A program made the translations under genes and the position numbers. The notes beneath the pieces are model-generated. The model searched no databases. It had not been told where the DNA came from and saw nothing but the letters and a program-made list of their open reading frames with translations. Below are positions 19,701 through 45,913 of a DNA stretch of 64,000 nucleotides, one piece after another (positions within the stretch are counted from its first letter, which is position 1; every line of letters starts with the position of its first letter). This DNA comes from Moniliella sp. 'wahieum' (lineage: Eukaryota): the NCBI GenBank assembly GCA_003971905.1, contig RSEE01000036.1:1-64000 (forward strand), given 5' to 3'.

Positions 19701-20222
19701 CCGTGCCAGGTGCGATGCCATCTTGGCCGATATACGGCCCGGCGTACGCCATGCCACCACACCCAGCACGCGCGCCGCAGCGGCGCGGATCGCCAACCCA
19801 TCGGGCTCGGAAAGCGGCGCGGAGAGGGACGCAACAACTCTGTGGGTCGCGTCAGGACAGGATAGGTCAGACCAGGTGAGCTCGGCGGCGCCCATGCGCT
19901 CGGGGATGATGTGTGCGTGGATGAGCATGGAGAGAGAGAGATGGGACCTACTGAGTTAGCTGGCGAAAGCGCCAGGCGGAGCTTGCCCACCGTTGACGCG
20001 AGCACGACGGAAAGCAGGCGGTTGAGACTGGGCAGGCTCAGCGGGGCGGTAGTCGCGTTGGGATCTGGGGAGGCGGCGCCGGCGGAGGGCGGGACGGTGC
20101 TGGCAGGCATTGGATGGCCCGTCTCCGTCACCGTCACAGTCTCCATCCCCATCTCCATCTCCATCGCCATATCCGTCTCCATCGCCGTCTTCATCTTTCT
20201 CCACATTCTTCTCGGACGCCAT
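16794..20222 (-). CDS. Large alpha-helical/ARM-repeat-like protein, possibly a divergent ARMC8/Vid28
   Basis: Chain of frameshifted minus ORFs from ATG 20222 (MASEKN); LNRLLSVVLASTVGKLRLA, IRAAAARVLGVVAW, KLIEAVLRALGAIW and IRCAALYFLCVL resemble ARMC8 helices; family tentative. Confidence 0.45.
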
Positions 20223-21034
20223 CGCGGTTAGGGTGGGTGGGGATGATGGTTGGTTGGGTGGATTCTCAGGAACGCGACGCGCCCATATGGGTCTTTGTGG
20301 CGTTGAACGGCGGCTTACACCGCTTGCAACGTTCAGAGCAGGCGGCGCCACAGCGCCTGTGGTGGCGCCTTGTCTGTCGCGTCGGAAGAATTGGGGGACT
20401 GGGCGATAAGGGGAGTGCGATGAAAGTAGCTACGCTACCAGCTAAGGACGATTGCACCGGGCAGGGTGGAAACAGTCAAAGACAGCTTTGTACCTGACGG
20501 TGACGCTAGTCCAACCTTCAATGCAACCGCTGGACAAGGACAAGCGCCAGAGCAGGAGACGAACAGGAAGAAGAGAACAGGAAGTTCACCTGATGTGCAG
20601 GGTGGAAAGTCAGAGACAACAATCCGGAGCAGGCGAGTCGCGGAACTCTAAGCCAGTTCCGCTTGCCAGCGACAGGCCGATCAAAAAAAAACCAAATGAT
20701 GCCCCACATGCCACCACACTCCAGCACCAGTGGGATCGTGAAATGGGTGACATACATCACCATCCTCGCTCCTCGCTCGTCCATCCCATCTCGATCTGAT
20801 GCCACGCAGACCCGTCGTGTGGGAGGCTAGCTAATACGCTGCTTGTGACCAGCCTCTTCCTTTCCTCGGCCCTGCCCTGCCGTCGCGATCTCGGCTTCTG
20901 TCCCGCGCTATACTACCACGAGGAGAGAGAGAAAAAGCAACCTCCAAGCGCAAGAAAATGTACATTAGTGCAGTGCAGCCATAGTGAGTCTTGTTGCCCC
21001 GGACGCCAGGAGCGCCCACAGACCTGCAGAGGCC

Positions 21035-22625
<1,591 letters not shown>

Positions 22626-23051
22626 GGGGCGGGGGGGGGAGGTGGTGGTGGAGGAGGAGGTGGAGTGACACGGGGGAGCTTAAGAAGTGGGCGCGGGAGA
22701 TTCCTGCAAGGGAAAGATCGGCGGGCTGCCTGCGAGCGACGCGCGAGCGCAGCCTTGCGCAGCCCGCTCTGCGCCACTCCCGCGCCCACACCGGCGCCGT
22801 GCGGCCCCTAGCCCCGGCACTGGCGCTGTGCAGCGTGTCGTCCAAAGGCGGGGCAACCGCAGGCAGCGCGCCAGGGGGCAGTGTGGGTCCCGTGTGGGCG
22901 CGGGCGCGCTGCTGCGCTGACACGCGCGGGGCCGGACGCGCTAAGGCCGCCGCACAGCGCCAGTGCCGTGCTCGCTGCCGAGCGTGCGAGTGGCGCTGTG
23001 CGTCACATGCCAGAGCGCGCACCCTGGCGGCCTCCACGTCAGCACGGCGCG

Positions 23052-23080
23052 CTAGGGTTAGCTCGCTTAGGGTAGGGTTG
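23052..23080. promoter_or_regulatory. Cluster of telomere-like CTAGGGTT/TTAGGG motifs upstream of UGM at the edge of the TE block
   Basis: gCTAGGGTTAgctcgcTTAGGGTAGGGTTg read directly. Confidence 0.45.
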
Positions 23081-23249
23081 CGCTGGCGTGGCGACGCAGC
23101 CGGCGGGTCTGCGATGGGCGACGGTCGATGATCGACGAAGCACACGCAGGAAGAGGGAAGAGTGAATAGAGAATGAAAATGGCTACGCAGTAAGTATTGC
23201 CTCAGCGGCGCGTTTTTGTCTACCCAGACAACGATTAATGAATCCTGGC

Positions 23250-24900
23250 ATCCGTATCGTCCGCCTTGCCCGGACGGATCAGCGCATCGCCTCTGCCCAC
23301 GTGCGCGCTGCCCACTCCTATGTCTGTTCCCTTCCAGCTTGCTCCATTGGTCATGCGCATCGATCGTGAGTCAAACGATCCCCCGAGGGTCTTGTGCTGG
23401 GACGATCAACGTATCAGCCGGCAGCCTTTCCAGAATGATCTGCAGCAGGGAAACAAACAGCAGTAGGCCGATACGATATGTCACGCGTGACTGTCCTGTC
23501 TCAGTCTCAACCAGACTAATCCGCATGAGACTTCTGTCTGCCAGAGTGCGACGCAAGCTGACCCCATAAAATCGCTCAAGGCGTGAAGGCAAAGTGCTAA
23601 GCCGCACGTCTTCAAGCAACGTCTGAAGGGAAGGAGGCGGGAAGCAGATAAGGGAGATGCAGGGGTGCACAACCTGCGAGAGCAACTCTTCCGCCTGGCT
23701 AAGCGACCGTCACCGATCAGCTGAGGGCCGTCCACTGCAGGGGAACCCTATAAAAACGCTACCCTCCATCACTGTCAACGCGCTGACGGAGAGTGTACAC
23801 TAATCCTTATCGATCCGGCCGAGTATCCTTGTTTTCCTCGCCAACTATATGGCAGGGTCATCACCTATGGACTGTGAGAACGACAAGATGTCAGCGTAGC
23901 TGCCAGTACAAGCTTTTCTTTTCTGGGACTGTTGGGTGCCCACACTCTAGCGCATCTTCACAGTTCTCCAAACCCAACAATGTGGCGTCTAAGTCATCCT
24001 GTTGATATTCTTGGTGGCCCCACAGATTTTGCAGTGGTCACATAGCTGCATGATCGATAATGCGATCCTGAGTTGAGGCTAATGGGGATCCCGCCTGTGT
24101 GATCGCCGTTCGGGAGAAAAAGCTTGAGACGAATGGAGGGGATCATAACGTGCAATGGGAGTACTAGAGCTCTGTTCTTGATCTGATCAAAGATACTGCG
24201 TTGATCAACGGAGCTGCAGTTGCTACCGGGCACCTTCTTGTCATAACCCCCCCCCTCGATTTTGAAGCAACGACTTTGGGCTTGAGAACCAAGAGCACAG
24301 CGTCGATTCATCTCTTAAGCTATAGTGATTTGAAGTCCAGGATCCATTAGAAAGACCTGACCATTGTGTTGTTCATCATCTGGTCCGACCTCCTGGAGAG
24401 CAGAGTCGGGAGCTTTCACTCATTATCCGGAGCAAAACGACATATGCACCAATAGCAATGTGTGCAGTACCACCTCTGAAAATCCAGAGTAACGATTGGT
24501 ACATTCCCAAGCACATATTGTCCTCTTGTCCAGCACATCATGAAGCGAAGGGAAGAGTCCCCTTGTACATGTTGAACTTGTCGTCTCTCTCGTTGTGGCT
24601 TCAACACGGACTTAACGAGAAAAAAAAGCGCTTATACTAACGGGGGAAAGGACCAAATGGCGTCAAGGAAAACATTGTTCAAAACGCACATGCCATACAA
24701 AAAGAGATTGCATCCAAGTCCCAGCTATAAAAGTAGGATCGAAAACCGCAATTAAGGAAGAAAAGCCGAAACCAAATGGGAAATAATGGTCAAAACCCCA
24801 ATAGACGAGTTTTCTTCTTCCCGAAGTCCACAATGTTATCTCAACCAGCAAAAATTCAGACAAGAACATTTTGGTCTATACCTAAGAGGCCTCTCTGAGG
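23250..24900 (-). mobile_element. Highly decayed Ty3/gypsy pol fossil (RT-RNase H-integrase N-terminus)
   Basis: Ordered remnants: LTPFG (~24650), VRSF (~24355), FDQIK..STPIARYDP (~24170), YQQDDLDATLLGLE..LECGHP (~23970), LIVP...AHD (~23380); many stops and indels. Confidence 0.45.
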
Positions 24901-25099
24901 GTTCTACTCAGTCCACCACAGATCCCATCCAAAGGTTTTGTCCACTGCCTACCTAGTTGTCGGAAAAGTCACCCACCGCGCTGGTTGTTCACGAACTTTA
25001 TTGAAACGCTCGTTTTGTTCTTCTTTTCCAAGGGTATAGTAATACCCGCTAAAGGGATATAGGAATTACATGGCATGTGGTCCAGGGGCTGGTGTGTTG

Positions 25100-28000
25100 C
25101 CTCTCGTGGCTGTGGATGGTCATTTATATCATCTTCCCCCTTTATATACCACCAATCCCGTCATCGCTCATACCCGTTTTCTGCGCCCCCCAGCAAGAAT
25201 TGGGGCTCTCTCCCTAGAACGAGATGTGCTGTAATCACATACTATCCCGGATCCCGGTTTGTGCGAAGCAACGACTGGTCTTTTATCAAACTAGAACCCT
25301 CTCCATCTCAGGCTCCGCGGCCTTCCACTTTAGGGGTGCGCTCCCTGAGAAAAGAACGGATTTCTCATAGTTGATCGAACCTGCTCGATTGATGGTGTTG
25401 GATGCGAACGGAGCTGTGGAGACCAGGTGAGGCCCACTTAGTTGGGGCGTCTATTTTCGCGTGTGTGGCAAGGTTGTGTATACACCGGATCAGATAAGAC
25501 TATTATATCGTGCCACAGTATATAATTATACCACAACAGTCCGACACAGGTTGATAATTCGGGAGACAAAACGAGAAATCGAAGAAGAGTCGGATAGGTT
25601 CTATCACCGACTGGAACGGTCGATCCTTGTGGAATCGCAGTGGAATTTGTGCGGGAATACTGTAGAGAGTGCAGATTTAGACGGAAATAAATGCACATGT
25701 GAGAGGGAATGACGACTACGAATAGTGTTATGCGCAAGACGGGCCGGCGAGCCTGACTGAGCCTACTTACACGATCTCTTCGCCCTCGTCATCGGCTTCA
25801 CCCCTTCGGTCCCAGGTATTGGTTGGATAACCAACACCCAAAACCAAGTTCTCGATCGCCGATGGTCAAGCGATGATCCGCGCTACCCAACTATTAGTCT
25901 CCTTCTACCCGGGTGGAAATAGGTATATATTTGCACCAATATTCGTCCCGTGTTCACCATTATCTTGCTAGGTTGTCCTTGCGTCAACCGCCCTCTCTTT
26001 TCCCCTGCCTCGTGTTAATTCTCTTTTGCGTTGTTTCCCTGTTTTGTCTCTCTCCGTAAGCAATATAGTTAGTGGATTTCCCCCACGATCCATTGGCGTC
26101 TTCACCTCCTGTCCTCGCCCATCAATTCAGTACAGGCAATTGTCTCTCCTCTTAGCCGCCTCCTCGCTACCCGTCCTGGTCTCTCCGCTCCTCAGAGACG
26201 ACTCGTGTGGGTCCCACTTCAGCCAGATCGAATACGGTCTCTGGCGGCGTTTATCCCCCGTGCCGCACCCTATTCCTGAGCCTCGAAGACTTCAGGTACA
26301 TTAATGCTACTGCCCAAACCGAAGCAACCGTGGCAGCCTTGCCACACTCCTGCAGCCGTCTCTGCTATACACCGAGAGGCCACTACTCCATGTCCCTAGT
26401 TCTGCTCCAATTCACCAAACACAGATCAAACAAGTAAATTCAGTTGACCCTTGGGACCCCTAAGGATTGTACTTCTGAAAAACCGGGTGTCCCTCGTTCC
26501 ACCAATCCTTTATCCCAGTCGTAGAAGGAAAGAGAAAGCACCGTTTGGTAGATCATGTATATCAGGGAATGTGAGCTCACCCTATTGAGACATATGATGT
26601 TGAGAAGCTTGCGATCCGCATCCGTATCTTTTGTTCTCTCTCCTTGAGAGCTTTCTTAATGCATAAGCAAACGGAGAAGCCATGGACCGGCCTGCGCTCA
26701 CCCAGACCAATCTAAGACTGCACAGGATCAGACGAATGCACACACCCAAATTATCCGTGGCACTAATACGAATAAAGCGAAAATACTGTGGCGCCTTTGT
26801 GACGGTGTTGCTGGCTTCCCAGGCGGAGACCTTCCCTGCCCATCGGGGCAAGACTCACCGCGACGACTGAACGCGATACAGATCCAAAATCCAAGGAACG
26901 CTCGTTCACGAGGATTGCGAGTAGCGCTTTAGTACTGTTTGTCAGGCAACGCCAGGCAGGGTCTCCGCCAGGAGGTTGCAAGAGTGGAGTTTGCCTAGAA
27001 GAAGGATGAAGGGGAAAGTGAGTCCACCTCCCGTCTCCTAACGCATCGTACCCCATAAACCCGGGTTACCCCGTGTCAACCTCGACGTTCAAGCCCCCGT
27101 CTTCAGCTCTCCGTCCCTCAGTCAACCCAGTTCGCGTGTACCTCCCCGGTGCCAGGTCGAAGCACAGCTACATCCAGCCGCGTGTGATTCCGCTTCCAGC
27201 CATCACGGCTGCGGACTTTGTATAAGAAATTTCCATGTTCTGGCTCTTCGGGTTTAAAGCACGTTGTTTTCCTATGGGGCATATATAAAATTCCTTTAGT
27301 GTTTTCCCAGAATCAGCGCCGTAGCATTCATCTATTTGCCGGTATAGTGCCTCCGCTTGGAAATATCTATAGTGAGAAGGCACAGCCCGTGGGAAATAGT
27401 GAGGAAAAGAGAGGCTCGAATGGGAATCGAACCCATGGCATCGCCGATTGGTCAGTGACGCGTTACCACTACGCCATCGAGCTGCGATAGGAGCAGCTGT
27501 AGGATCAGAGAGCCTCCGCTGCGAAAACACAAACCAAAAGGGTAGAAGGCGAACAAGGCAGACATCATCTCCTCCACTGTTATTATAGCTTGCATGCTAG
27601 CTACTAAATATCAACGCCACTGGTGCTCCAGTGCTCGACTATATACCCAACAGAGAGAGTTTGTCTTCGTCGCTAGTGGTTCATACATCCGCTTCACAGT
27701 TGATGCGGCATTGCTATTCAGACTCTTCATCTTCGTTGGTAGCGTCCGAAACAGACGCGTGGGACCGGCGAATGGTCCGCGTAATGGGCCTATGCCGTCT
27801 CGCGCCCTCCCAGCGGTATGCTGAAGGAGCAGCACCCACAGCAGCCTGGCGGCGTTGAGCTATCACTTGGGCCAGTATGTCGGCTTCGCGCTGCTCTGTG
27901 CTCGCTTGTCCCAGGCGCAAATTGAGGTTACTCTGGCTCTTTGGAGGGATTTTCAATGCGTACTCCACCAGGACATGGTTGAGATGCGCAACATGCCGAA

Positions 28001-28250
28001 TAGTACCGATTTAAACCCAGATTGGTTGATGCCGATGGCTTTGGAGGTAACATATCCTGTCAGGCAATGCACGGGCGGTTAGCCTCGAGCAACCATTGAA
28101 TCGCCAAATGTTTTGCGGAGGGAGCGTACCAGGCGTTCTTTTGATCCTGATATCAGCCAAGCATTGAGCGACCAGATTCGGCGCACCTGGGGGGCGAAGG
28201 AATTGCACCCTCTTGTTTCCTTGCCATTGAGGGAAGGTTCTGGCGATATC
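25100..28250 (-). mobile_element. Highly decayed Ty3/gypsy pol fossil (PR-RT-RH-IN order)
   Basis: AWLISGS (PR-like, ~28150); TVEEMM..PTAAPI; RYFQAEALYRQID..DSGKT (RT); FMGY..G; PFAYALRKLSRRENKRY (RNase H, ~26650); LFVVV..GDRTYPTLLRF..RENRRPN and LVLGREP (integrase, ~25200-25740). Confidence 0.65.
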
Positions 28251-29070
28251 GCATGCGGCTGGCAGATTTTGTTTCTTGGGGAGATGGTGATGGTGTCGCT
28301 GTAGGAGAGTTCAGCTAGGTGAACAGGTGTCTCTGTCCGGAAGTGGGTTATGCAATCGCACTGGTGGTGGTGGTGGTCTAAGCCAACCAGCAACACCTAC
28401 AAAGGAACAGCAAGCAGCGAGTCGCCACAGGGGCTAAGCTGCGGAACAAGGAAAAACAGGAGAGAGAAAACAACAGAACTCCCAGGCCTGAGGAGGAACT
28501 GAAGGGACACATTGGCCAAAGCACGAGCCACCCGATGGCTCAACATGAACTGTCTGTCCGTTTACCTATTTCTCCCCATGCCAGGCAGTATGCGGGTCTT
28601 ATTTTGCAGGGCTGGGCACTCGTTGCAACCGGAGCCCGAAGGCTGACGTTACCGTACGGCTACCAGTGACCGGTGACCAGTTAACGTTTAACGTACTTTT
28701 AACATGCTTCGTGCGAGCGACCCTGCCCCGCACGGGCTTCAGCCGCTTCACGTCGCAGAGCAGCACAGCATGCTCTCCGCACCATGCTTCTGTTTTGGGG
28801 GTGATGCAGGATGATCGCTGAAACAGCGGCCCCAGGCCTCAATTTGAGGTGTATAGTCAATTCACGCTCCGCAAATCTCAGCTCGATCGACCCCTGGGAA
28901 TCCGACCCCTGGTGGGGAAGCGACCACACAGCTGCATCCCTTTTAGGCGAACTGCATGCCCCCGCCTACCACCTTTCCCGCCATCATCTTTCTCTTGAGC
29001 CAGTACTGCCACTCTACAATGCCTCCCTCCCGCACCGTCAGGACAACCAGTAACCAGCAACGCCGCTCGC

Positions 29071-29230
29071 TGTTGACATCCGTCCTAGGACCGCGCGGAC
29101 CCTGAGTCACGTGAGTCGGCTTTCATTCCTTCCGAGCTCGCACCAGTCTTCTGGACGAGTCAGTCGCAGAAGCTTCTTAGTCCAATACGACGTTCAGTGC
29201 TCACATTCTGTGGTAGTAGCGAGGCCGACA
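29071..29230 (+). repeat. 5' LTR (160 bp)
   Basis: TGTTGACATC...GAGGCCGACA, identical by eye to 33709-33868. Confidence 0.97.
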
Positions 29231-29283
29231 GAGTTACATCCTTATCTGCTCATCCCTGAGCTGGCCAAACTACACCCACAACC

Positions 29284-30518
29284 ATGGGCGCCAACGCTAA
29301 CACCGATCTCTCGGTCAGCGACACCACAATGGTGAACAAGCGCGATTACTGGACACCAACCGGTCGCGATCCGCCACCGATTGGCACCGACAACGAGGAA
29401 CTCATGATGCTTTGCGCCGAAGCGCACCTGTGGTTCAAGAAGACGAACGACATCGATGTCGTTAAAGAGAAGATCAACAGAGCTATACACGACAGAGCCG
29501 AGTGGCTTGGATGGAAGGACGAACCTACGTCTATCACGACAAACTGGGTTCGACGGGCTACGAATTTTGTGGTGCAAAACATCCACCAATGGAAACTCAA
29601 CCAACGCAACTTTGGGGGCACCTACAGGCGCAGCCTCGCGACCCGAGTACGACCTTTACAGATCACTACGCGAGTCTCCCACCAAGATATCAAGTGGCCT
29701 GATCTGAACAAAGACCCGTCCGCCTACAGCGCTTGGGAAGACGAATTTCTTCGCGATAACAGATGCCCACCCCCACGCAAGCGACGTCGTCCAGAATGGT
29801 CGCAGCTCCCGCTACTTCACCGAGGACCTCGACAGACGCTTGCACAACCTTCTTAGGGAAGCCATGCCGACAACCCTCTTCCGGACGATCCGCACCCACC
29901 ACGAATATCATGCACCCAGGACACGCTGAACATGCTGCGTCAGCGGTATGGATATACGCCTACCGCAAACAGAGGGCCTACTCATTCGCTACTTTTCGGC
30001 CGACCAAGGAAACCGATCGGGTCGAGACTACCTCGACTACATGGAAGAGATCAGTGCAAGCCTGACGCGAGCGGGCATCCCACTTACGAAGAGCAGGAAC
30101 GCACTGGGATCCTACTCGGCTTACGCGACATGAGCATTCGCCAGCGTGAAGAGCGCTCGAGTCTAGACAAGTTACGGCAGGCCGTGATGGACATACCAGC
30201 CGCCACGTATCCCGGTGGAGAAGAAGAGAAACGGAGGCAAGCCGGTCAACGGAGGAACGCCTTGGACTCGACCTGACAGCGGGGGACGACCCACGCGGGG
30301 GAAAAACTCCAGCGGGGGCAAAGCCGGCGACGACAACCTCGCGGACACAAAGACCAAGGGGCAAGACCGCACCAACCAACCCTGGCGCAGCGCGACGTCT
30401 AATAAACCTGTTGTCCCTCCGCGCAACCCAGGCCGAGCCAACGCTCACGTCGCTCAGAGAGCGAGCTCTCCCTCAGTCTGAAGTGATTGACGTTGATGCG
30501 GGCACAGCTGACTACTAG
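29284..30518 (+). CDS. gag: Copia Gag (frameshifted in the assembly), ending at TAG 30516-30518 or TGA 30479-30481
   Basis: ATG 29284; PDLNKDPSAYSAWEDEF, MLRQRYG, SGRDYLDYMEEISASLTRAG (UBN2/gag-like); basic tail; no CCHC seen. Confidence 0.75.
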
Positions 30519-33500
30519 GAACTCGGGGGCGAAATGCGAATCATCCGGGCATTATATGACAGTGGGGCATTCCCATCCATTTGGAAAGACAAATCCGTCT
30601 TCACATCCATGACCCTTTGCGACGACGAGATAGAGGTTGCTAACGGGACACATGTAAAGGCGGAAGGACGAGGCACGGCCACAATCCGTATCCGATGCTT
30701 AGGAGGACACCAAATGGAGATAAAACTCCCAACAGCCTATACATGCCCCGTTTCAGCCGAATCTCGTCAGTGTAGCACACCTGTCGAACACCGGAATCGC
30801 ATCATACTTCGCCCACCAGAGGGTATCTGGCTTGGTAACCAGGATCCACCCTACGAAAAGTAACCGGCAGTGACTATCAATTCACGATCTTACACAACCG
30901 CGTACGCCACCCACACCCCTGCGGGCCATGGCGACCAAACCGATCAAACCGGCCGACCCACCCTCAACCCCAAACTCCCTCGCAGCATCCCTGGCCCTGG
31001 ACCACGTCTCTAAAGCCCACAAACGCTGGAACCACGCAGCCATCGACCTCCTCCCCTGGCTTACACGATCGGAAACCGCAGGCCTCCGCGTCACAGCCAA
31101 GCATATCTCCCTCTGTCGTTCAGAGTGGGATTGCCCAACATGCGCGGTGGCACTAGCGACAGCATCGCCCCATCCGAGCCGGGACCGCCTCCGATCCAAA
31201 AGACCTTTCGAGGTCCTCCACGTCGACGTAGTAGACCTCCCCCGGGTAACCGGCATGGGGCACGGATACGCCCTCGTCGCCGTTGATGACTTCACGCGGT
31301 ACGTCTTCACCACAGCGATCCCGACAAAGGGCGCTGCAACGAAGGAACTGCGGAACCTCATATTGCGGGAGCAACGCTAACGGCCCGGACAGACTGCTGC
31401 GGACTTTGCGCACGGACAACGCCCCGAATTGACAAGCGCACTGCAACCTTTTCTGGACGAGCAAGGCATCACGTCAGAACGGACAATCCCGGGGCAGAGT
31501 GCTAGCAACGGTGTGGCTGAGCGTGCCATCCGAACCATAACGACTCGTGCAAGGCAGTTGCTCTTGGGTACAGGTCTTCCGACGTCGGACTGGTGGGAAA
31601 CAGCCTCCACGCTGCGTGCTTCACCCAAAACCAAATGCCACTCAAAACATCCGGGGAAGACAACAAATCGCGATTTGAGCGATACAAAGGCCACGCATAC
31701 TCGTTACCGATGCAACCCTTTGGCCGCGTTGCATACCTCCATCTGCCCGAGTCACGCCGCGAGCACAAGCTCAGCGCGCGGGCAGAGGAAGGTATGCTGG
31801 TAGGATACCACCATCAGCGCGGATCAAAGGGATGGCTCTTCGCCACATACCAACCATCCCTGGGTACCTTCACCTACCGCTGGTCGAAACCGTACAAATG
31901 GGGCAACCCATCTACCCCCATCTCCACCCCGACCACTTCCCACCCGACATCTCCAAATCACCTCAAATTAAAATCAACAGTGAAAAAGACGCTAACCCTA
32001 CTCCGCCAGCCGCGGCAGCACCCGTTTGCCGACACAGTTCAACCTCCCGAATACGCCGCCATGACTGCTCTCAGCGCACCCATCCACCCGGACACGGTTC
32101 AGCTCACCAAGGATGGCGTACCCTCGCTCCCAAGACGCTCAAGGGTCTCGAGACTCACCCCTCCTTTGCCATGGTCAAGCAGGCTATGGCCGACGAGGTG
32201 GCCACACTCGCGCGATACGGCACCTACGAGGCTACGTACCCACCACCGGGTGCACAAATCCTCATAGGACTATGGCGCATCACCACAAAGACGGACGCCG
32301 AGGGCCGGTTCCTGCGCCACCGCGCGCGCTTTGTCGCGGGCGGACACCAACAATCGGCCGAGACTTGGGGCCAGACGTTCGCACCATCGGTGCGCACACC
32401 TGCCATCCTGACCCTCGTCGTGCTGGCCGAGAAGTATAAGTTTGGCCTCTTCTCGGCGGACGTCAATGCAGCGTACCTGAACGCCCCCCTCGAAGAAGCA
32501 GTCTACATCCGCCCACCCCCCTACTTCCCCGAAGCGGGTGGTCGCGTGTGGCGTCTCAAGAAGAGTCTATACGGGCTACATCAGAGCGGAGCAAATTGGG
32601 CACGATACATCCGGAACCTGCTGCGTGACAAGCTCGGCTTCACGCAAAGCTTGACCGAGCCCTGCTTGTTCGTGCGCGCTGCACCACCGGGTGAGCAGAT
32701 CCTCCTGGCGGTCCACACCGACGATCTGCCTCGCATGCAAGTCACACCAAAAGTACGAGGAGTTTATGACCGAGATAAACACACACATTGATGTTCGTGG
32801 TAACGGTCCCCTTCACTACCACCTGGGATGCCAATACGATCGGATCGGTGGGGAGCTGTACCTGAGCCAACCAAAGTTCATCGAGGAAGTGGTGGCAAAG
32901 CACCACATCAAAGCCCCGTGGATCCGGACTCTCCCACATCCCGTACGGATGATACCGCCCCGTGCCGACCCTGAACCCCCATCCCTCCCAGCCTTGCGCA
33001 AGGCATATCAGGGGAAGATCGGATCGGGACTGTGGGCTGCACGAATGGGCCGGCCTGACTCCCTGTTCGCTATCACGGCCCTCAGCAGAGCCGCTGCCGA
33101 CCATCGCAGCAGCATCATCAAGCAGTCGATGACTTCCTTCGCTACCTGTACCATACTCGAGGAAAGGGCCTGAGGTTGACCCCAACCTCAGATGCACCGG
33201 CCATTGCGCTGTATACAGATTCCGACTTGGCGGGAGATCCCATCCAGGCACGCTCCACATCTGGATGCCTACTGATGGTGTACGGTGTGCCGGTGTCGTG
33301 GCGATCCATTCTTCAGCCGAAGAGCGTTACCAGTACCGCCGCCGCCGAATATACGGCAGGATATGATGGACTGGTTGACGCCAACTATGTCAAGAACATC
33401 ATGATCGAGCTTGGGGCCATCGGCGAGGGTACACCCATTCATTGGTATTGCGACAATAAGGCTGTCGTCGATCTCGCCCACAAATTTGGCAGCACCGGCA

Positions 33501-33700
33501 AGCTCCGAGAGCTGAAGATCCGGTACCACAATGTACGGCAACACGTGGACTCGGGCGAGGCCATACTTGTACACATCCCCGGCGAAAGGAACCCAGCGGA
33601 CGTCCTCACCAAGCCTCTCGGCCGTCCCGCCCTGACAAGCCATCTTGCTCAACTCCGCGTCGAGGAGATGGATCCAGTCCACATGACTGGGCCCTCGGTC
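30519..33700 (+). CDS. pol: Copia Pol (protease, integrase, reverse transcriptase, RNase H), frameshifted in the assembly
   Basis: ORFs 30534-30863, 30928-31380, 31429-31803, 31593-32267, 31832-32791, 32691-33173 and 33176 onward carry consecutive copia motifs. Confidence 0.92.
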
Positions 33701-33708
33701 AGCGGGGG

Positions 33709-33868
33709 TGTTGACATCCGTCCTAGGACCGCGCGGACCCTGAGTCACGTGAGTCGGCTTTCATTCCTTCCGAGCTCGCACCAGTCTTCTGGACGAGTCA
33801 GTCGCAGAAGCTTCTTAGTCCAATACGACGTTCAGTGCTCACATTCTGTGGTAGTAGCGAGGCCGACA
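33709..33868 (+). repeat. 3' LTR (160 bp)
   Basis: Identical to the 5' LTR; preceded by the PPT, followed by TSD CTCGC. Confidence 0.97.
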
Positions 33869-35869
33869 CTCGCCGCCCGAGGGACACACGACGTATCAAC
33901 CCTGAGCCAGAGCCCGTGGTGGAGACTGCTTTCGAAGGTGACGAACCGTCCCGTGAAGAACCACCTGGTGGCAGCAGTGGGATCAACAGCGATTCGGCAG
34001 CGACTCCGACGGAGGAGAGGGGAAAAAGGAATACGAACCGAGAGTTACGTTGTAGTCCCTCCCCCCCCCTCGTTCCCGTGTTGGTTCGTGAAATGATTAT
34101 GCGGGGTCAATTGAACCCGCAGACGACGACGATGAACAACGAAGAAGTTTTGCGCTGGGTCTTGACGCTGACACCTTGTTTCCCCGCACAATGGACACTG
34201 ATGAAAGAGAGCTCCGTTAATCAGGACGAATTTGCTGGCATTCCCCTCTGATGTGGCCCTTTTGCCGGAGAATTGGATCAGTATTTCATCGATCCGCTCG
34301 TTACAAGGGCAACATGCATGCTCATCGAGGAAAGTCTATGCGACATCAAGACTCTTCGGGTGGTCAAAAGGTCAGGACCTTCAGCTCTCGCCGCATACCC
34401 AGGATCACTTTGGCTACTGACTCGCCATTGACAGAAATGGTACAAATGACTCTTCGCGGTATGGGTTTGTCTGCATCCCTAGGAGCAGGATCGGCAACAA
34501 TAATGATTTAGGCTTGGTTTTCTGTCCGCAAGCGGCTTGTCCCCGCGAGGTCCCGAAGAGTTCACTTTTGACGGACAATCCTGCCCCATATCGGTCGTGT
34601 GACAAAAAGTTGTCCAAGTTTGTTGACGGTGTTCCTGAAGCCGACTTGGTCCACCATGCGTCGTCGCATTTCGATTTGGCGGTACGTTTTTATGCTTACA
34701 TACCGCCCTGGTCATGACCTTGCTACCCGCCCCTAACCTAACCATTGCTTTGGAGGAGGAGGTGGCCACAGGAGAGAGAGTGGATGCGTGGTCCTGGGTG
34801 CTGAAGGGGCATCAAGTTTGAAGCGCAACGTTTAAGGCCGCGATGGCGAAAGTTGATGTGGCTGCAGGACGGAATGGACACCCTAACCCACCCAAAAAAT
34901 GCATTTGATCGAACTTAGGATTAAACAAGTGCGAATTGCTTGGATATATAACCTTGGCGAAACACGAGGTAAGCTAAGTACTTCTATTATAGCGAGACAC
35001 GGATAATGGTCAAACCCACTACAGCTTATGGCCGTGCTTTTAAACCATTTGTTCCGGGAACTTGGTTTTATCCCATACAAACCCCGCAGCCGTGATGCCG
35101 CTCCCAGCCCTACTCCAGATCCAGCCGCTGCCACTCTCTGTCCCTGAGCTCGAACGCTTCAGACATGTTGCCGGAGCTACACAGCAGCGCGACACTTGCA
35201 GCCGCCTCTGCCATACAGTGAGGGGCCTTTCCTCGTGTCTTAGCCTGTTCAGATGTACAAATCAGCTCAAGCACGTAAATACGATAGCCTCCAAAGCGGG
35301 CCCGTGGCAGAAACCGCCGCAAATCATTGATCCCCCAAGGGGGTCCGTAGTGTCTCTGACTTGTACAGTCTTCGCATGAATGCTTCCTTGTCGACAGATA
35401 GGGTTGATCGTCTAACGAAAAGAGCGCGAACTTTTCATACCCTTTTGGTGGTAATTCACAAGGGTTGATGCATATGGCCCGGTTCATGTAAATGCTCCCG
35501 TTGATCTCACGGGAGCATCTGGGAATGAATTTCACTGTTTGCACTATATCGGGCAATATGTTCACTCGTCATATACTTGTATCTAGACCGAGCATTAAAG
35601 AATTCTTCCATAGTGTTGCATAGTGTCTTTATGAAGCATCACACACTGCATTGATATGAAGGCCGTCATGTGCCTGGTATGAAATACCCCAATGGGCAGA
35701 TATAAAATCTGTATTTCACTTGTTAGAGAGATCTTCATGCGCTTGGCCGAAGCACGGATGTCAGACCATTAAACATCGTCGTGACATTCAATTATCATTA
35801 CTGGGGATATATATTCACTATTTTTTCGTACACCACTATTAGGGTAATTTGTACTTCTCTGCTATAAAT

Positions 35870-36830
35870 GGTTGATTGCATATGATTCGCCAGAGCCATT
35901 TCGCGAAATGTGTTCACATACACCGAGCCGAGATTCAGTTCTATATCAGGTGGACCGGCTAACGGTACCCAGAGAAAACTTCTTTCGATGTCTTTTTTGT
36001 ATGACTAGGTGGACGAGCGAATATGGAGAACATTTTTTCTTAGGGGACGTTTATATGAGGGCAAGGAAACGACCTGGTCTGGGGAAAATGTTCGCTATCG
36101 TCCTTTGTATTGATGACATCTCCGGTGATAACTTGACAGGATTCAATACTCGTTCCTTTCGCGACACTCCGACGATGTAACTGCCTATAGCATGGATTGA
36201 TTTGGTGCTATACTAGTGACATGCAACCAGTGGCACTACAGCAATTGTTTTTATTGTCTTCTTCTCCCCACTTGGTTATGCAGTAAATGTTATGACTATT
36301 CCCCCACCATCCACTGTAGTTGCACAAAAGTCTCCGGATTTTTACTGTGACACCCTCGTGGGATAACCAAACAGCAGTGTGATAAATACTCTCACTGGAT
36401 ATATGCAGTGAACATGTTGCCATCGCGAAAGACTTTTGCAGACTATCATCCCGAAGTTTGATGCTCATGAGCAAAGAAAGGAAAGTCAGATCTGAATCTC
36501 GAAGAGGCATGGCACGGTCTCTCTACAAGACCATCAAGTGGAATCGTTGCCATTCGTTGCTTAGTCTACAGGAGAAGTACAAATCGCTGACGGAACACGT
36601 GTGGTAGTTTCTTACTCCTTCTTCCTGTTATGTCTTCATCCCTGCCACGGGGCTTGTGAAATGTTGACGCCCCGCTTTAGCCTCACTCTGGTAACCTGAG
36701 ACTGCTCACTATGGGACATTTCTTACAGACTTCAGGCTCACCGGTTTGACGACGGATTTGGAACTGATCGCGTAGTCATACACGGGTGTCCCCAAGTGGC
36801 ATTACGTTCCTAGGCAACAGTTTATCGTAG
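35870..36830 (+). mobile_element. Decayed DNA-transposase relic (fungal DDxSGN/DNP..CSH..FCR family, CMC/EnSpm-like)
   Basis: RARKRPGLGKMFAIVLCIDDISGDNLTGFN (~36060-36150) and WDNQTAV**ILSLDICSEHVAIAKDFCRL (~36360-36445) in the expected order; in-frame stops. Confidence 0.45.
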
Positions 36831-37556
36831 TTACATCCAAGATCGCTTTTGAAGTTTTCCTGTGTCCTAGAACCGGGACGTCTTGGGCGTAGTCCGCGCT
36901 CTAAGTGGTGGCAATCATTAAGCCCTCTGTCTCCCAATTCGGCCCTCAAACGAAGCCTTACTCAGGATTCGGGCGATCTAGGTCGATCGGATGTCAGCAC
37001 AATTTTATTATGTCCATCCATAGAGATGATGTACATCGCTCTGACGTGACCTTAGTGACATTCTTTTTCTCTGGGCCCATCGGATGTCTTTTACGCTATA
37101 GTTGGTGCTGGACTTATAACCCCACTGCCAAACCTCAGCATAGTTACAGTCTATTCAGGTTTTCCGGTTTCGAAACGTTGCTTTTTTGTGGTGGACTGTG
37201 AGTTGCTGTCGACTTCGGTTTTGGACAAGTTAATTGCATACGCATTAACTTGTTATAGGTACACTTGGTATTGGGAGAGGGAAGATGTTCAACCGCCGTT
37301 CGGGGGTTAATTCAGGCAATCTTCTCATTGATCCGAGTTGTATTTTACATCGAGCGGCAATTGCTTTGTCTTCCTCTGCGCCTTGCTCTTATTTACTTAA
37401 CCTTCTACCCGATATCATCTTGAGTCACTGTTAGTTCATGCGACGTGCGTCATTTGTCTTCTACTTCAAAGTGGATCCCTTTCTTCTGGGATGTGTAGTT
37501 GCAGGCCCGCTCATAATACTGATCGCTGTAGCAGCCAGCCTTGATATCATCAGTAG

Positions 37557-37716
37557 TGTCGGCCTCGCTACTACCACAGAATGTGAGCATTGAACGTCGT
37601 ATTGGACTAAGGAGCTTCTGCGACTGACTCGTCTAGAAGACTGGTGCGAGCTCGGAAGGAATGAAAACTGACTCACATGACTCAGGGTCCGCGCGGTCCT
37701 AGGACGGATGTCAACA
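37557..37716 (-). mobile_element. Solo LTR of the same copia family
   Basis: Reverse complement of the 160-bp LTR with 6 substitutions; own TSD AGTAG at 37552-37556 and 37717-37721. Confidence 0.96.
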
Positions 37717-37799
37717 AGTAGTTTGGACTGTATTGTTGCAAAGCAACGCTCCGTTCGGGGTGCCTATATCTCACCAAGAACCTTCAAGTGAGGGCACAG

Positions 37800-39800
37800 A
37801 CTGCAACTAATGCGGTTGTGAAAAAGCTAAGCTGATTTCAATCAAGGCCACGAACTTTCTCAGGTCTGGGGATGTTGCGCATCACTCTGTAATGCCTTTC
37901 CCCTTCATCATGCACAAACCCCAGCTTAAGGGTGCCCAATCGGAGGGCCTAACAGGTACAGTTCCTTCCTGCAAGTCGCAAGAGTGGAACCATGGTATGT
38001 TGGTGGTTGGCCACATTGGAAAATCCTAAAGAAAAGAGATAGGGATCCCGGCCTATAAATGCGGTGGTCCTTGTGTATGACAGAGGTACGCAGGCACTAG
38101 TCTGGACGGAGAGTAAGTAGCCTTGTGAAACCGTTAATTACGGTGGTGGAAGAAGAGGCCGCGGAGGACGACGCTGTTCTCAATTAAAGGGGTACTAAAT
38201 CCCAGGTTAACCGCCGATAATCTGGAGCTGAGCTACTGTGGGGGGTAAAAAGACAGAAATCCGAACGAACGGGTAGCTAGTAAAAGGCGAGGGAATCGTC
38301 CCTATTGAACAAATTTACGAAGGAAGTAGAGACACCAATGAGTCGTCGGGGAAAGCCCCAATCTTTGGAGACAGGGGGGACTAAAAGAGAAGTACGGCGA
38401 ATTGAGATGATATCAGGGAAAGACTACAGACTAATAGGAAGCAGTGCCACGAAGAGAGAAAGTTTCCCCTCGGCGGGTAACAAGAAAACCAATGGAGACG
38501 TGCTGGGCTCCATTTTCAACAGGGGTGAAATGGGAGGGTAGGGAGCAGAATAGGTAAACAGAGGTATAAGGGTCTACGACTAGCTCTCGTTGCGACGGAT
38601 ATATGTGGCCGATGAGTGTTTGGGCCACAGGGAGATAAGGTACGGTGACTCCAAGATTGGAATTATGTTGGGGTTGGGAACGAGCTTTGGACTCGGATAA
38701 GATTGGAATTAAATCAGGGGAGTCCAGCAAGTAAAAACAGTACGCTCTCCTTCACAAGAGGGTCTTCACTTTTTGATGGGCCGCTGCCTCACGTTTTCCA
38801 TCATGGGGAGATGGCATCTTCGCCTTTGTGTCAGTTGGCCCACACGGAGCGAATAGGGCGCGTAGCCTCGCATGAGCTCGCCAGCCCGTCTTCGCAATAT
38901 CCCTGTGGCCTTAATTTTGGGCATCACAGTGAGAAAGGCGCCGCTCGGATTTAACGGAGGTGAGCAACATCGGATTCAAGCACTCTATGTTCGAAAACAA
39001 ACAACAGATAAGCTACTACCTTCTCGAAGAATGATGGAGACCATAGTGAACATAGAGGTGTGCAGACGCGTTCCAACCCTGCGGTACGATGCCTTTTGCA
39101 GTGGAGGCGATGTGGTCCGACTGGAACGAGAGACTGCCAAATAGATCCATGCACAGAGGTGGTCCCTGCGCCACCCAGTTTTAGTTGGGGACGGGGTACA
39201 GGGCATGAACAAAAGTGGAAGTAACCCATAGTCCAAATTGACGGTGGTCCGATCAGGATGCAACCCGCCAGCAACAGAGAAAACATTCGTTATTCCCTTT
39301 CTCCTATGGCAGTGAGGCAGGTTTGATCATCATCTCGCGCAGTTCTCTCCTGGATCTAACTTGCTCTCGCATTAAGTGTATACTAATGCCGCCTCTCCAC
39401 AGCGGAACGACGAGACTCACTGCTAGCTCTACCGTGAATGACTGGTTGTTGCTAGTAGTATTGCCTTTTCCTCTGTATATGAGCGCGTTCTCATCAGTCA
39501 TCAGAGCCTGAGTTAACCGATGTTCGAACAACTGAATTCGCCCCTCCCCTCGCTCCTCATTCTTCATCCCATACAGGACATTCTTCCTCTCTCTGATCCA
39601 CAAGTACATAAAATGACACCATACTCCCTGTGTGTCCAATCGGCGAGTTTTTTGGAATAGATATAGGTGCCGAAAAGTGGGGGTGAAGTTAACCCGCCGT
39701 TCGAGGCAACCCTGTAAGGCCAAGGAATTCACGTCCCCTTGACTTGCCCGATCAGGTGTTTTCTTGTCATGCGAGTCGACACGCTGCTGAAAACGGGTTC
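37800..39800 (-). mobile_element. Highly decayed Ty3/gypsy fossil (gag-like, then RT)
   Basis: Gag-like YRGKGNTTSNNQSFTVELA (~39450); GFLVTRRGETFSLR..Y (~38470); QGY..TTAFIGRDPYLFSLGFSNVA (~38010-38125) recalling KTAF..YEF..MPFGLxNAP. Confidence 0.4.
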
Positions 39801-41190
39801 TCACCTCGCTTCTCCCCCTCAGGTCGGATCGGTCGACGACAGAGTTGAAGTAATAGGCTGTGGGTCAGCCGTGAACTGCGCGGCCAGAGTTTCGTTCAAG
39901 GGAACACACTCACTTGAGTTTTGGTTCGTGGGACCCACAGCCCCACTACATCCGCCCGTGCCAAGCAGTTATAGTTACGCTCCCACAAGAGCGAAGACGC
40001 GCGCACAGTTGCTCTGCTTCAAAGTTGAGGGAACCCAGCAATGCTCATCATAGCACAGCAGGCGCGATTTTCCCTCATGCTACCCACACGGACTTTGCAG
40101 GGGAGGCGCGAAAGTCGTCCATTTTCCACAGTGGGCACCCCAAGGGCGGCGGGGGGGGGGTGGAAACATATGAACGCTGCTCCACGGAAGAGGTGGCTCC
40201 GCATCAAACAGGTGAGGCTCAAAGCATTTTGAAGGAGGGCGGTGGATCCGATCCGATGTGTGTGGAGTAGGGACAACGGGGAGGTTATAATCATTTGCAG
40301 CACGTGGTTTTCGGTATGACGCTAACAGGTAAGGAATGGGTAGGATTTGCCGGCGGACAAAAAGCATTGAGGTGTGATGGGTGGCGACCGCCACAACGAG
40401 AGTGACGTGAGTGCGGCCGTGTTGCGTGGGCAAGTTAAGAAAAAGCCAAGCACAGGCACAAACAACCCAACCAGAGTGCATAAAATCACAGCCCCCCACT
40501 ACACTCACATGAACTAAAGAGGGTGGAAAATAGGAAGAGAGGCTGAAGGATGTAAGCAAACCACCCGGTAATAATACCGGTAAGAGAAGCGGACAGAGAT
40601 ATGGATAGAAGGCAAGTGCCGGCGGCGGGAAGGAAAATGTTTTGCCTATTATATGCGATAGATGGATTGATGGGGTGATGATGGAATGGCAACATCTCCC
40701 GGCACAGGAGAATACAGAGGCAGAAGCAGTAAAATACAGGTCGATTGTGGTCGTCCAGCGGGGCCAGCAAAGCGTACTACCCTTGAGTTCCAGAAGCTAC
40801 TAGCAGCCTCGCCCATGACATGTGCTCAAGTCGTTCGCGTTCGAATGGCGAAGACTGCTGATGGCGAAAGCTGCCGGCGCTGGCAGGCTTCGCCCGGACA
40901 ATCCTATACCCGTGTCCATCCTACCCACATTCGCCCGGGCATACTGGTGGGATATATGCAAAATGGAACGAGATGATCCAAACCAACCAGCTCTGCAATC
41001 CTTACTAATAGTCCTGCGGTACGGGTTTGCTGTTGTTAGTTGGCCTACCTAGTACAATACAGACTGACTGGGAAACTAGAACCTGTACCAACCTAGCTTC
41101 TGACTCCCCCCCCCCACCACAGCGTACGATCGGAGCAGCAGACGTGAATGCAAGGATAAAGTCGACGGTACACAGACAGCCATTCGTTCG

Positions 41191-42602
41191 TCAGTTGTGT
41201 TCCTTGAGCGGGGTAGCCTGGCCGGCCTTGACGTTGCCCCAGCCAATCAGACGCCAGTGCTTGTCCACACGCCGCGACAGCGCGACCTTTTCATCATAGT
41301 CGGCGCACACGGGCTTGGTGAGTGCGATGCGCACCATGTCCGCCTTGATCGACAGCACCCTTCCGCCCGTGGTGAGGGATCCAATGGAGAGCATCAGTAC
41401 CTCTCCCGCCTCGAGTTTGCGCACCTTGACCTGTTTCTTGTCGTCGGACGCGACACCCAACAGCCGACGCAGGAGGAAGTAGGACAGCTCGAGTTCATGG
41501 TATACCGTCGGCAGCGACCCCGTCTCGCCGAGTACTTGTCCCACAATCCCATCTCCGCGACACAGCGTCGGGTCCATCTTGGTCCCAGCGCCAATCAGGC
41601 CACCAGGCACGGCAAAGTCCAAGTTGTTGTGTTCCGCATGGAGCGAGACGACACGGGTTTGGATGGGCATGGTGAGCAGGTTGCCCTGCTCATCTCGGGT
41701 GCTCAAACCGGGCCGCACCTCCACTTTTTGGCCAACCTTGAGAACGCCGCGGAGGATCGAGCCACCGGCCACACCGCCCTGCAACTCCTCCACCTCTGCG
41801 CCGGGCTTGTTGACGTCAAAGGAACGGATGATGATCAGGCGGGCCGGGGCGGTAAAGTCGCGGATGGGGATGGGGATGGTGGTGACCAGCTGTTCCAGGA
41901 CAGCATCAATGTTGTACTTGAGCTGGGCGCAGATGGGCACGATGGGTGAGTTGGCAGCTTGGGTTTTGTGGGTGAATCGCTTGATTTGGCGCCAATGTTC
42001 CTGGGCGGCCTCTTCGCGGATGAGGTCGACCTTGTTTTGAAGGATGATAATGTGGTCCAGCCGCATAATCTCCACGGCGGCCAAGTGCTCCGACGTTTGC
42101 GGCTGCGGGCAGGGCTCGTTGGCGGCGACAGGAGCAGTGCGGCGTCCATGACGGCGGCACCGTTGAGCATTGTGGCCATCAGGATGTCGTGTCCGGGGCA
42201 ATCGACAAAGGAGACGTGACGGACGAGGTTGAGGGTGCCGGGGCCGGGGCGGGCGCACTTGGGGTGGTCCTCGGTGTCACTGGGGAAGGAGGCATAGTTG
42301 CCGGGGCGGAGGCAGTCGGGGTTGTCGCACTTGTAGATCTTGGCGTTGGCGTAGCCGAGCTTGATGGTGATGTTGCGCACGAGCTCGTTCTTGAAGCGGA
42401 CGGTCTGGACGCCGGAGATGGCCTTGACTACGGTGGACTTGCCGTGGGCGACATGGCCGATGGTGCCGATGTTGATGGTGGCCTGGCGGCGGATGACCTC
42501 GGGGGAGAGGGGGGTGAGGGCGGTGGCGTCGACGCGGATGTTGCGGACGCCGTCGGTGATGCTGTCGATGGTGGCCGGAGCCTGGAGCTCGTCGAAGGCC
42601 AT
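41191..42602 (-). CDS. GCD11: Eukaryotic translation initiation factor 2 subunit gamma
   Basis: [114 protein letters not shown]; intronless, one frameshift ~42125. Confidence 0.98.
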
Positions 42603-42734
42603 GGGGGGTGCGGGGGGGTACGGGAGGCGGTGGCGGTGGTGGAGGCGGCGATGGCGGCGATGGCGATGGGCGAAGAAGGCCTCGACTTACGTACGACGGC
42701 AACTGGCCGAGTGGCGCGGCGCTGAGGTAAGCGG

Positions 42735-45800: not shown

Positions 45801-45913
45801 ACGCGGTGCCGAGCGAGGCGGAGGTGGAGTATGTGCGGCAGGTGTGGGCCGACGCGTTTGAGAACGCGCAGATGGCGGACACGCCTTTGGAGCTGCGCGC
45901 CCCGCCTAGCTGA
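42884..45913 (+). CDS. Hypothetical helical-repeat (PPR-like) protein, frameshifted
   Basis: Long ORFs 42738-43391, 43519-44088, 43812-45398, 45154-45861, 45563-45913; PPR-like FDMAVVRHGIRPDTACLDLALRCAC; start uncertain. Confidence 0.55.
45217..45360. repeat. (CCATCT)n hexamer microsatellite, about 24 units, within the CDS
   Basis: Read directly; encodes (PS)n in the frame of ORF 45154-45861. Confidence 0.95.

Follow-up and report, generated by a model that had tools for sequence, protein, structure and literature searches.

To our knowledge, the centromeres of Malassezia are the only ones that have been mapped experimentally in Ustilaginomycotina, those of Ustilago being predictions. The Malassezia centromeres span 3–5 kb and have a core of less than 1 kb that is ~78% AT, with enrichment of a 12-bp motif (PMC7025860, Sankaranarayanan et al. 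2020). The predicted Ustilago centromeres measure 4.1–37 kb in U. maydis, 15–42 kb in U. bromivora, and 26–67 kb in U. hordei, and are ORF-free, poorly transcribed, HobS-rich, syntenic, and present once per chromosome (PMC5866544, Yadav et al. 2018). The centromeres of Cryptococcus span 20–110 kb and are retrotransposon-rich, with several retroelement families being dominant (PMC5866544), and the predicted centromeric regions of Salmacisia buchloeana span 32–181 kb and are low in GC and rich in copia and gypsy elements of several families (bioRxiv 10.1101/2023.05.24.542141). SI Table S3 of PMC5866544 gives centromere coordinates without flanking genes, and in the main text of PMC7025860 we found no names of genes flanking known centromeres.

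In the window, by which we mean the whole 64,000-nt stretch of DNA analysed here, the longest gene-free stretch by far is a block between the genes for UDP-galactopyranose mutase (UGM) and eIF2-gamma (Table 1). The anatomy of the block is directly observable: it is GC-poor, lacks both coding signal and repeats, and has received two clean insertions, each with its target-site duplication. Like the predicted Ustilago centromeres described in PMC5866544, it is long and ORF-free in a compact genome, carries LTR insertions, and comes from the same subphylum, and its 18.5 kb falls within their 4–67 kb range; unlike those HobS-rich regions, it is 27% transposable element (TE) of one copia family, the rest being unique. 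Like the Malassezia centromeres described in PMC7025860, it is a GC trough in unique intergenic DNA of Ustilaginomycotina and carries no centromere-specific repeat; unlike them, it is 18.5 kb long with a lowest GC of 0.42 per kb (58% AT), and is thus not of the Malassezia type. It resembles the centromeric regions of Cryptococcus and S. buchloeana in being ORF-free, in having a GC content below that of the arms, and in containing LTR elements, but it is smaller and mostly without recognisable TE sequence. The block is a reasonable but unproven in silico candidate for a centromere, of a familiar kind. With slightly less than even confidence, we read it as the regional, epigenetically specified centromere of its chromosome, or at least as a centromere-linked cold domain.

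Table 1. Features of the candidate block and its flanking genes (positions in the window)
Feature	Position	Strand	Remarks
Left flank: UGM	21133..22650	-	5′ end towards block; several frame breaks
ORF-free, GC-poor, repeat-poor block	22651..41190	.	18,540 nt
Left unique non-coding segment	23371..29070	.	GC 0.516; local minimum 0.44 at 24500–24999
tRNA-like sequence	27411..27483	-	aberrant anticodon arm, then T-run
Full-length Ty1/copia-type LTR retrotransposon	29071..33868	+	4,798 nt
Lowest-GC core	33869..37556	.	between copia 3′ LTR and inverted solo LTR
Solo LTR, same copia family	37557..37716	-	96% identity to full element's LTR
Right unique non-coding segment	37717..41190	.	+ strand purine-rich
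Right flank: eIF2-gamma	41191..42686	-	3′ end towards block; stop at 41191

The flanking genes anchor the block on both sides. Specifically, three overlapping ORFs on the left match solved UGM structures (E 2e-52, 3e-34, and 8e-30), and the FAD motif GxGxxG of this minus-strand gene starts at 22608. On the right, eIF2-gamma contains the Pfam domains eIF2_C (E 4e-32), GTP_EFTU_D2, and GTP_EFTU, and its best named relatives in a protein search are from Ustilaginomycotina; judging from its sequence, the host organism is a member of Ustilaginomycotina. The initial annotation had placed the block between two gene-dense arms, and five named genes or domains in the left arm (ubiquitin fusion, SAP, BAR-SH3, TauD, and UGM) and four in the right arm (eIF2-gamma, GT22 mannosyltransferase, CobW, and RanBP1) bear this out. 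The arms are the window's two sides of the block, and given the close spacing of their genes, a unique spacer as long as 13.6 kb stands out as exceptional in the window. TrAA12-like Pfam matches are present on both flanks; a segmental duplication of the flanks was considered on this account and rejected, the two ORFs having no similarity (E 0.054).

The GC content of 23150–41150 is 0.526, as compared with 0.628 outside, in agreement with the drop described initially, for which the hand counts of 40/120 and 37/60 are exact. The non-TE parts of the block have a GC content of 0.50–0.52 versus 0.60–0.65 in the arms, and 84% of the 49 block windows of 500 nt outside the copia element fall below the 5th percentile of the arms (0.544). 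GC declines gradually at the left edge, over ~700 nt, and reaches its minimum in the lowest-GC core, at 0.42 per kb at 35501 and at 0.33 per 100 nt at 35776. In the left arm, a single 1-kb intergenic spot at 16001–17000 has a GC content of 0.49–0.50. This spot indicates that a GC content of ~0.50 is normal for non-coding DNA in this window, and the anomaly of the block is therefore the length of its non-coding stretch together with its few repeats. RIP was rejected as an explanation for the lowered GC, since TpA/ApT is 0.74–0.78 and (CA+TG)/(AC+GT) is 1.15–1.23, whereas an ascomycete-type AT island has a TpA/ApT above ~0.89 together with strong CpA/TpG depletion; the observed/expected ratio of CpG is 0.84–0.85. 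A GC-skew switch was likewise rejected as a centromere mark: the cumulative minimum lies inside the block, yet the skew chiefly reflects gene orientation and the strand on which copia is coded, and the Malassezia paper (PMC7025860) does not use GC skew for centromeres.

The block is also depleted of small repeats. TRF detects 4 loci in its 18.5 kb (0.22/kb), as compared with 82 and 79 loci in the two arms (3.61 and 3.46/kb), making such loci 16-fold rarer in the block, where they are at the chance level given by shuffled sequences (0.12–0.20/kb). The microsatellites do vanish in the block, as had been noted at the outset. Furthermore, perfect duplications of 6, 9, and 12 bp number 5, 0, and 0 in the block, versus 57 and 64, 9 and 6, and 4 and 2 in the two arms. 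Perfect 7-bp duplications number 4 in the block's 13.6 kb, a density equal to that of the right arm.

The TE content of the block consists of one full-length copia element and one solo LTR. The LTRs of the full-length element (29071–29230 and 33709–33868) are 160 nt long, 100% identical, and bounded by TG...CA, and the element is flanked by a 5-bp target-site duplication, CTCGC, at 29066–29070 and 33869–33873. Its domains are arranged in the order Pol_BBD, rve, SH3_retrovirus, and RVT_2 and are spread over several frames. In particular, rve (30874–31377) lies upstream of RVT_2 (31679–32788), and it is the direct TG...CA LTRs, the 5-bp duplication, and an integrase upstream of the reverse transcriptase that assign the element to the Ty1/copia type. 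The solo LTR has its own target-site duplication, AGTAG, at 37552–37556 and 37717–37721, and together with the 3′ LTR of the full element it forms an inverted repeat (33709–33870 and 37555–37716, 96% complementary). It differs from the LTR of the full element at six positions, all of them transitions, and five of the six are GC-to-AT in the solo copy, which fits GC decay in place. Since both insertions retain intact 5-bp duplications, their target DNA was already non-coding when they arrived. Self-blastn and tblastn did not reveal a second TE family in the block. The description of the block as a TE graveyard, and of its LTR elements as being of several ages, is thus not supported: a single copia family is represented by one identical LTR pair and one solo LTR at 96%, and 73% of the block, or 13.6 kb, consists of unique sequence with neither detectable TE or gene homology nor a RIP signature. 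Of the centromere call in the initial annotation, the ORF-free length, the GC trough, the LTR insertions, and the size agree with the features by which the Ustilago centromeres were predicted, but its retrotransposon-rich premise is not borne out by the recognisable elements, although the unique DNA may include very old relics.

Host genes are not recognisable in the block, as first claimed. A six-frame read-through of 23001–29300 and 33601–41400 yielded no Pfam family at E ≤ 0.1 except the C-terminus of eIF2-gamma at the edge. Among the 80 ORFs of at least 82 aa in the block and its right edge, four correspond to copia domains, one to eIF2-gamma, and one to a weak TRM13 match (ORF 36211–36522, E 0.0033, 17.5 bits versus a cut-off of 26), which we take as chance because it is absent from the six-frame read-through and lies below the cut-off. 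No host-like codon usage was found in the block, where the log-odds reach a maximum of 0.01, as compared with a 90th percentile of 0.08–0.16 and a maximum of 0.52 in the arms, and three-base periodicity averages 0.07 versus 0.24–0.35 in eIF2-gamma. For two of the block's three pieces outside the TEs, ORF lengths are at chance level relative to shuffles. In the left unique segment, the longest ORF, of 142 aa, is equalled in 73% of shuffles, and neither a Pfam family in six frames nor an internal repeat was found; ORF lengths in the lowest-GC core are likewise those of shuffled sequence. By Pfam matches in six frames outside copia, codon signal, and ORF lengths, the block is ORF-free in the sense used for regional centromeres, with the caveats of a tRNA-like sequence and of frame breaks in the assembly. 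The earlier term gene-free is accordingly apt for protein genes and inexact for the tRNA-like sequence, which ARAGORN calls tRNA-Gly(ACC) and which scores 43.2 bits with the Rfam tRNA model against a gathering score of 29, but whose anticodon region leaves 14 bases unaligned and whose acceptor contains one non-standard pair.

We consider it improbable that the block holds long non-coding RNAs, or lineage-specific genes such as those for small secreted proteins, that are invisible to Pfam and chopped by assembly indels. Indels are frequent in this assembly, because the same DNA encodes UGM residues 363–376, 377–397, and 405–474 alternately in two frames and because a copia element with identical LTRs spans several frames; since Pfam at E ≤ 1e-4 also missed the flanking gene UGM, one or two orphan genes could hide in the block. 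The right unique segment, moreover, contains 10 ORFs of at least 100 aa, as compared with 3.8 ± 1.8 in shuffles (p ~0.007 for the excess), and its GC and AT skews are positive at 38000–38999 and 40000–40999. The longest of these ORFs, of 238 aa (40080–40796, minus strand), was rejected as a gene and attributed to composition: it lies on the pyrimidine-rich strand, lacks a codon signal, and has a single match among 1.84 billion proteins, a 17-fold tandem-repeat 'protein' without a Pfam family that is itself an artefact. The codon log-odds and periodicity of the block also argue against hidden genes, as does the expectation that the ~6–7 genes implied by arm density should have given some Pfam match, where none was found.

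It is a realistic possibility, though one we would give clearly less than an even chance, that the block is a non-centromeric gene desert, formed by the decay of very old transposons or pseudogenes and surviving by chance as a heterochromatin island that still collects LTR insertions, with the centromere elsewhere on the chromosome. The two LTR insertions mark a TE-tolerant site, and the GC-to-AT drift seen in the solo LTR could remove any protein homology that older elements once had; set against this, TE protein remnants were found in no frame at E ≤ 0.1, internal repeats and a second LTR family are both absent, useless DNA amounting to 13.6 kb ought to have been lost from a compact genome with spacers of ~0.3–2 kb, and centromeric satellites are not known from Ustilaginomycotina. 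Foreign or misassembled DNA, be it a contaminant, a chimeric join, or a large insertion of different composition that was acquired recently, is very improbable. The composition and repeat content of the block are sharply unlike those of both arms, and a scan of metagenome contigs for the initial 30 nt of the copia LTR gave 0 matches; however, contaminant or transferred DNA normally has genes and the block has none, its GC falls gradually at the left edge and not at a sharp joint, and its residence has been long enough for two copia insertions, one of them now a solo LTR diverged by 4%. The longest direct and inverted matches between the block boundaries are 9 and 11 nt, within the shuffle values (mean 10, maximum 13), and with no terminal or boundary repeats beyond chance, the block was rejected as a single giant mobile element; this, too, speaks against a foreign insertion.

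Under the centromere reading, the binding of the kinetochore to the block, its chromatin state, and a suppression of recombination there are what we infer. Specifically, the unique, GC-poor non-coding DNA, ~13.6 kb in all, would form the bulk of the candidate centromere, and the kinetochore site would most plausibly coincide with the deepest trough, at ~34–38 kb. A domain that is transcriptionally quiet and recombination-poor would be expected to have three consequences. GC would decay under AT-biased mutation without the counterweight of coding selection or GC-biased gene conversion; the micro-duplication and microsatellite processes of the arms would be inactive; and LTR retrotransposon insertions would be tolerated, one copia copy being still complete and the older copy having presumably become a solo LTR by LTR–LTR recombination. 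Several observations run against the centromere reading: the trough is shallow, an ordinary intergenic spot of the left arm also has a GC content of ~0.50, perfect 7-bp duplications persist in the block, orphan genes could hide behind the frame breaks of the assembly, and recognisable retroelements account for just 27% of the block, in contrast to the centromeres of Cryptococcus and Ustilago, where TEs dominate.

Confirmation of the block would provide a first view of a centromere from a branch of the smut-fungus subphylum that has been little sampled, and a data point between centromeres of the 'short AT-rich' type and those of the 'large transposon-rich' type. More speculatively, and with appreciable doubt, a centromere on ~13.6 kb of unique, moderately GC-poor DNA in a deep-branching member of Ustilaginomycotina might represent an intermediate between the short AT-rich cores of Malassezia and the transposon-filled Ustilago centromeres, in which copia colonisation is just beginning. 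The scarcity of micro-duplications in the block, if the centromere reading is true, would tie the mutational process that produces them to chromatin state or recombination, and the block constitutes a natural control region for this micro-repeat phenomenon.

The block, the candidate regional centromere at 22651–41190, fills the 18,540-nt interval between the genes for UDP-galactopyranose mutase (UGM) and eIF2-gamma. The ORFs assigned to UGM match solved structures of the enzyme with E values of 2e-52, 3e-34 and 8e-30, and the FAD-binding GxGxxG motif begins at 22608, indicating that the 5′ end of UGM faces the block. Pfam matches to ubiquitin fusion, SAP, BAR-SH3 and TauD families on the left, and to GT22 mannosyltransferase, CobW and RanBP1 families on the right, verify that the flanking arms are gene-dense. 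The two TrAA12-like matches, one per flank, align to the same portion of the profile, near its C-terminal end; a duplicated flank is ruled out, as the two ORFs have no significant similarity.

Features of the block and its flanks
Feature	Position	Strand	Remarks
TrAA12-like Pfam match	19959–20429	−	left flank
UGM	21133–22650	−	left neighbour of block; identified in three overlapping ORFs by similarity to solved structures
tRNA-like sequence	27411–27483	−	ARAGORN Gly(ACC); Rfam 43 bits; only gene-like object in block
Copia element	29071–33868	+	4,798 nt; 160-nt LTRs, 100% identical; TG...CA ends; CTCGC target duplication
Solo LTR	37557–37716	inverted	96% identical to copia LTR; own AGTAG duplication
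eIF2-gamma	stop at 41191	−	right neighbour of block
TrAA12-like Pfam match	44367–45905	−	right flank
Second tRNA match	62116–62204	−	89 nt; Rfam 43.9 bits; not called by ARAGORN

The GC content of the whole window is 0.599, and the drop described in the initial annotation is confirmed, with 0.526 over 23150–41150 versus 0.60 in the left arm (1–23150) and 0.65 in the right arm (41151–64000). Both of its hand counts of G+C, 40/120 at 35761–35880 and 37/60 at 42421–42480, are exact. Among 49 overlapping 500-nt windows of the block outside the copia element, 84% lie below the arms' 5th percentile (0.544). On a 1-kb scale GC is lowest at 35501 (0.42) and on a 100-nt scale at 35776 (0.33); a second minimum of 0.44 lies at 24500–24999. 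In the left arm, the ordinary intergenic DNA at 16001–17000 has a GC content of 0.49–0.50, as low as the block average, and low GC by itself is thus nothing special in the Moniliella genome. CpG depletion in the block is mild (0.84–0.85 versus 0.93–0.99 in the arms), and a signature of RIP is absent (TpA/ApT of 0.74–0.78).

The microsatellites of the arms vanish in the block, as the initial annotation had stated. Specifically, the TRF density is 3.61 and 3.46 loci per kb in the two arms (82 and 79 loci) but 0.22 per kb in the block (4 loci), which is at the chance level in shuffles (0.12–0.20 per kb). Perfect tandem duplications follow the same pattern, with counts in the left arm, right arm and non-TE block of 57, 64 and 5 for 6-bp units, 9, 6 and 0 for 9-bp units, and 4, 2 and 0 for 12-bp units. 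Duplications of 7 bp are fewer yet present in the block (4), and are far more numerous in the left arm (1–22650; 22) than in the right (41191–64000; 5) at similar TRF density, a difference that probably comes from more intergenic DNA on the left.

The frame of UGM residues 363–376, 377–397 and 405–474 alternates between two frames over the same DNA, with no intervening sequence, and the copia element, which has identical LTRs, is spread across several frames. Judged from the sequence, these switches appear to stem from indel errors that are frequent in the assembly, and not from introns or decay; we therefore relied on frame-independent tests. That the block as a whole is foreign or misassembled DNA is, in our estimate, very improbable.

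Among 80 ORFs of at least 82 aa in the block and its right edge, four carry copia domains, one is eIF2-gamma, and one gives a TRM13 match (E = 0.0033, 17.5 bits) under the curated 26 bits. Because frame breaks are common in the assembly, the six-frame translations of 23001–29300 and 33601–41400, with stops read as X, were also searched, and the only family match at E ≤ 0.1 was to the C-terminus of eIF2-gamma, at the edge. Codon log-odds, based on 1,353 codons from supported genes and scanned along the sequence, peak at 0.01 in the block versus 90th percentiles of 0.08–0.16 and a maximum of 0.52 in the arms, and three-base periodicity averages 0.07 versus 0.24–0.35 over eIF2-gamma. ORF lengths in 23371–29070 and 33869–37554 are the same as in Markov shuffles, while 37717–41190 has an excess including a 238-aa ORF (p about 0.007). 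The + strand of 38000–41000 is purine-rich, with GC skew up to +0.26 and AT skew up to +0.28, which accounts for long stop-free minus-strand frames, including the 238-aa and a 186-aa ORF, whose translations look non-coding. The 238-aa ORF is rejected as a gene: it lies on the pyrimidine-rich strand of this purine-skewed stretch, it has no codon signal, and a search of 1.84 billion representative proteins gave a single match, to a "protein" that consists of a 17-fold tandem repeat and belongs to no Pfam family. Pfam is blind to many fungal genes, UGM itself being missed at 1e-4, and one or two orphan genes may lie hidden in the block; that hidden genes account for the block is nevertheless improbable. 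The claim of a gene-free block thus stands for host-gene families and codon signal, but not for the tRNA-like sequence, which has intact acceptor, D and T arms, a poorly paired anticodon arm and a T-run after its 3′ end, and probably represents either a tRNA gene in decay or a relic derived from a tRNA.

Repeat finding, self-blastn (word 9, E ≤ 1e-3) and tblastn with copia pieces within the window recover only three related sequences, the two LTRs of one copia element, in which integrase precedes reverse transcriptase in copia order, and one solo LTR. Together the element and the solo LTR account for 27% of the block; the remaining 13.6 kb are single-copy within the window and yield no TE protein remnant in the six-frame family search (E ≤ 0.1). 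The initial annotation was largely right in its observation of the block, but wrong in describing it as a TE graveyard. The target duplications of the element and of the solo LTR indicate that both inserted cleanly into already non-coding sequence, and no terminal repeats marking the block as one large element were found. Six transitions separate the solo LTR from the young LTR, five of them GC-to-AT, a small hint in the sequence that GC may be being lost in place.

Unique sequence of 13.6 kb that lacks both coding signal and repeats, in a genome with otherwise close-packed genes, is difficult to reconcile with ordinary intergenic DNA. The simplest account is a centromere, or else a cold domain linked to one, and we tentatively read the block as the centromere of its chromosome; a decayed, non-centromeric desert is a rather unlikely alternative. 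The best matches of the eIF2-gamma fragment in named organisms are from Tilletiaria, Malassezia, Ustilago, Thecaphora, Sporisorium and Tilletia (near 67–70% identity across 84% of an ORF with non-coding ends), placing the organism in Ustilaginomycotina, with no close sequenced relative in that list. In Yadav et al. (PMC5866544), the predicted Ustilago centromeres are long regions free of ORFs, poorly transcribed, rich in HobS and syntenic, of 4.1–37 kb (U. maydis), 15–42 kb (U. bromivora) and 26–67 kb (U. hordei); the block is of matching size and likewise ORF-free, but most of it is not TE. It does not fit the Malassezia type, given in PMC7025860 as 3–5 kb long with a 78%-AT core of less than 1 kb. 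For Salmacisia, bioRxiv 10.1101/2023.05.24.542141 predicts low-GC regions of 32–181 kb rich in copia and gypsy elements. The centromere reading is plausible and matches published in-silico practice, and the block keeps the status of an unproven candidate; if the reading is true, the block would be a further regional centromere of a type already known.

The copia 3′ LTR (33709–33870) and the solo LTR (37555–37716) form a 162-nt inverted repeat (96%) bracketing the 3.7-kb core in which the block's GC is lowest, superficially like centromeres whose core is flanked by inverted repeats; this layout is probably a coincidence. The second tRNA match, in the right arm, probably contains an intron.
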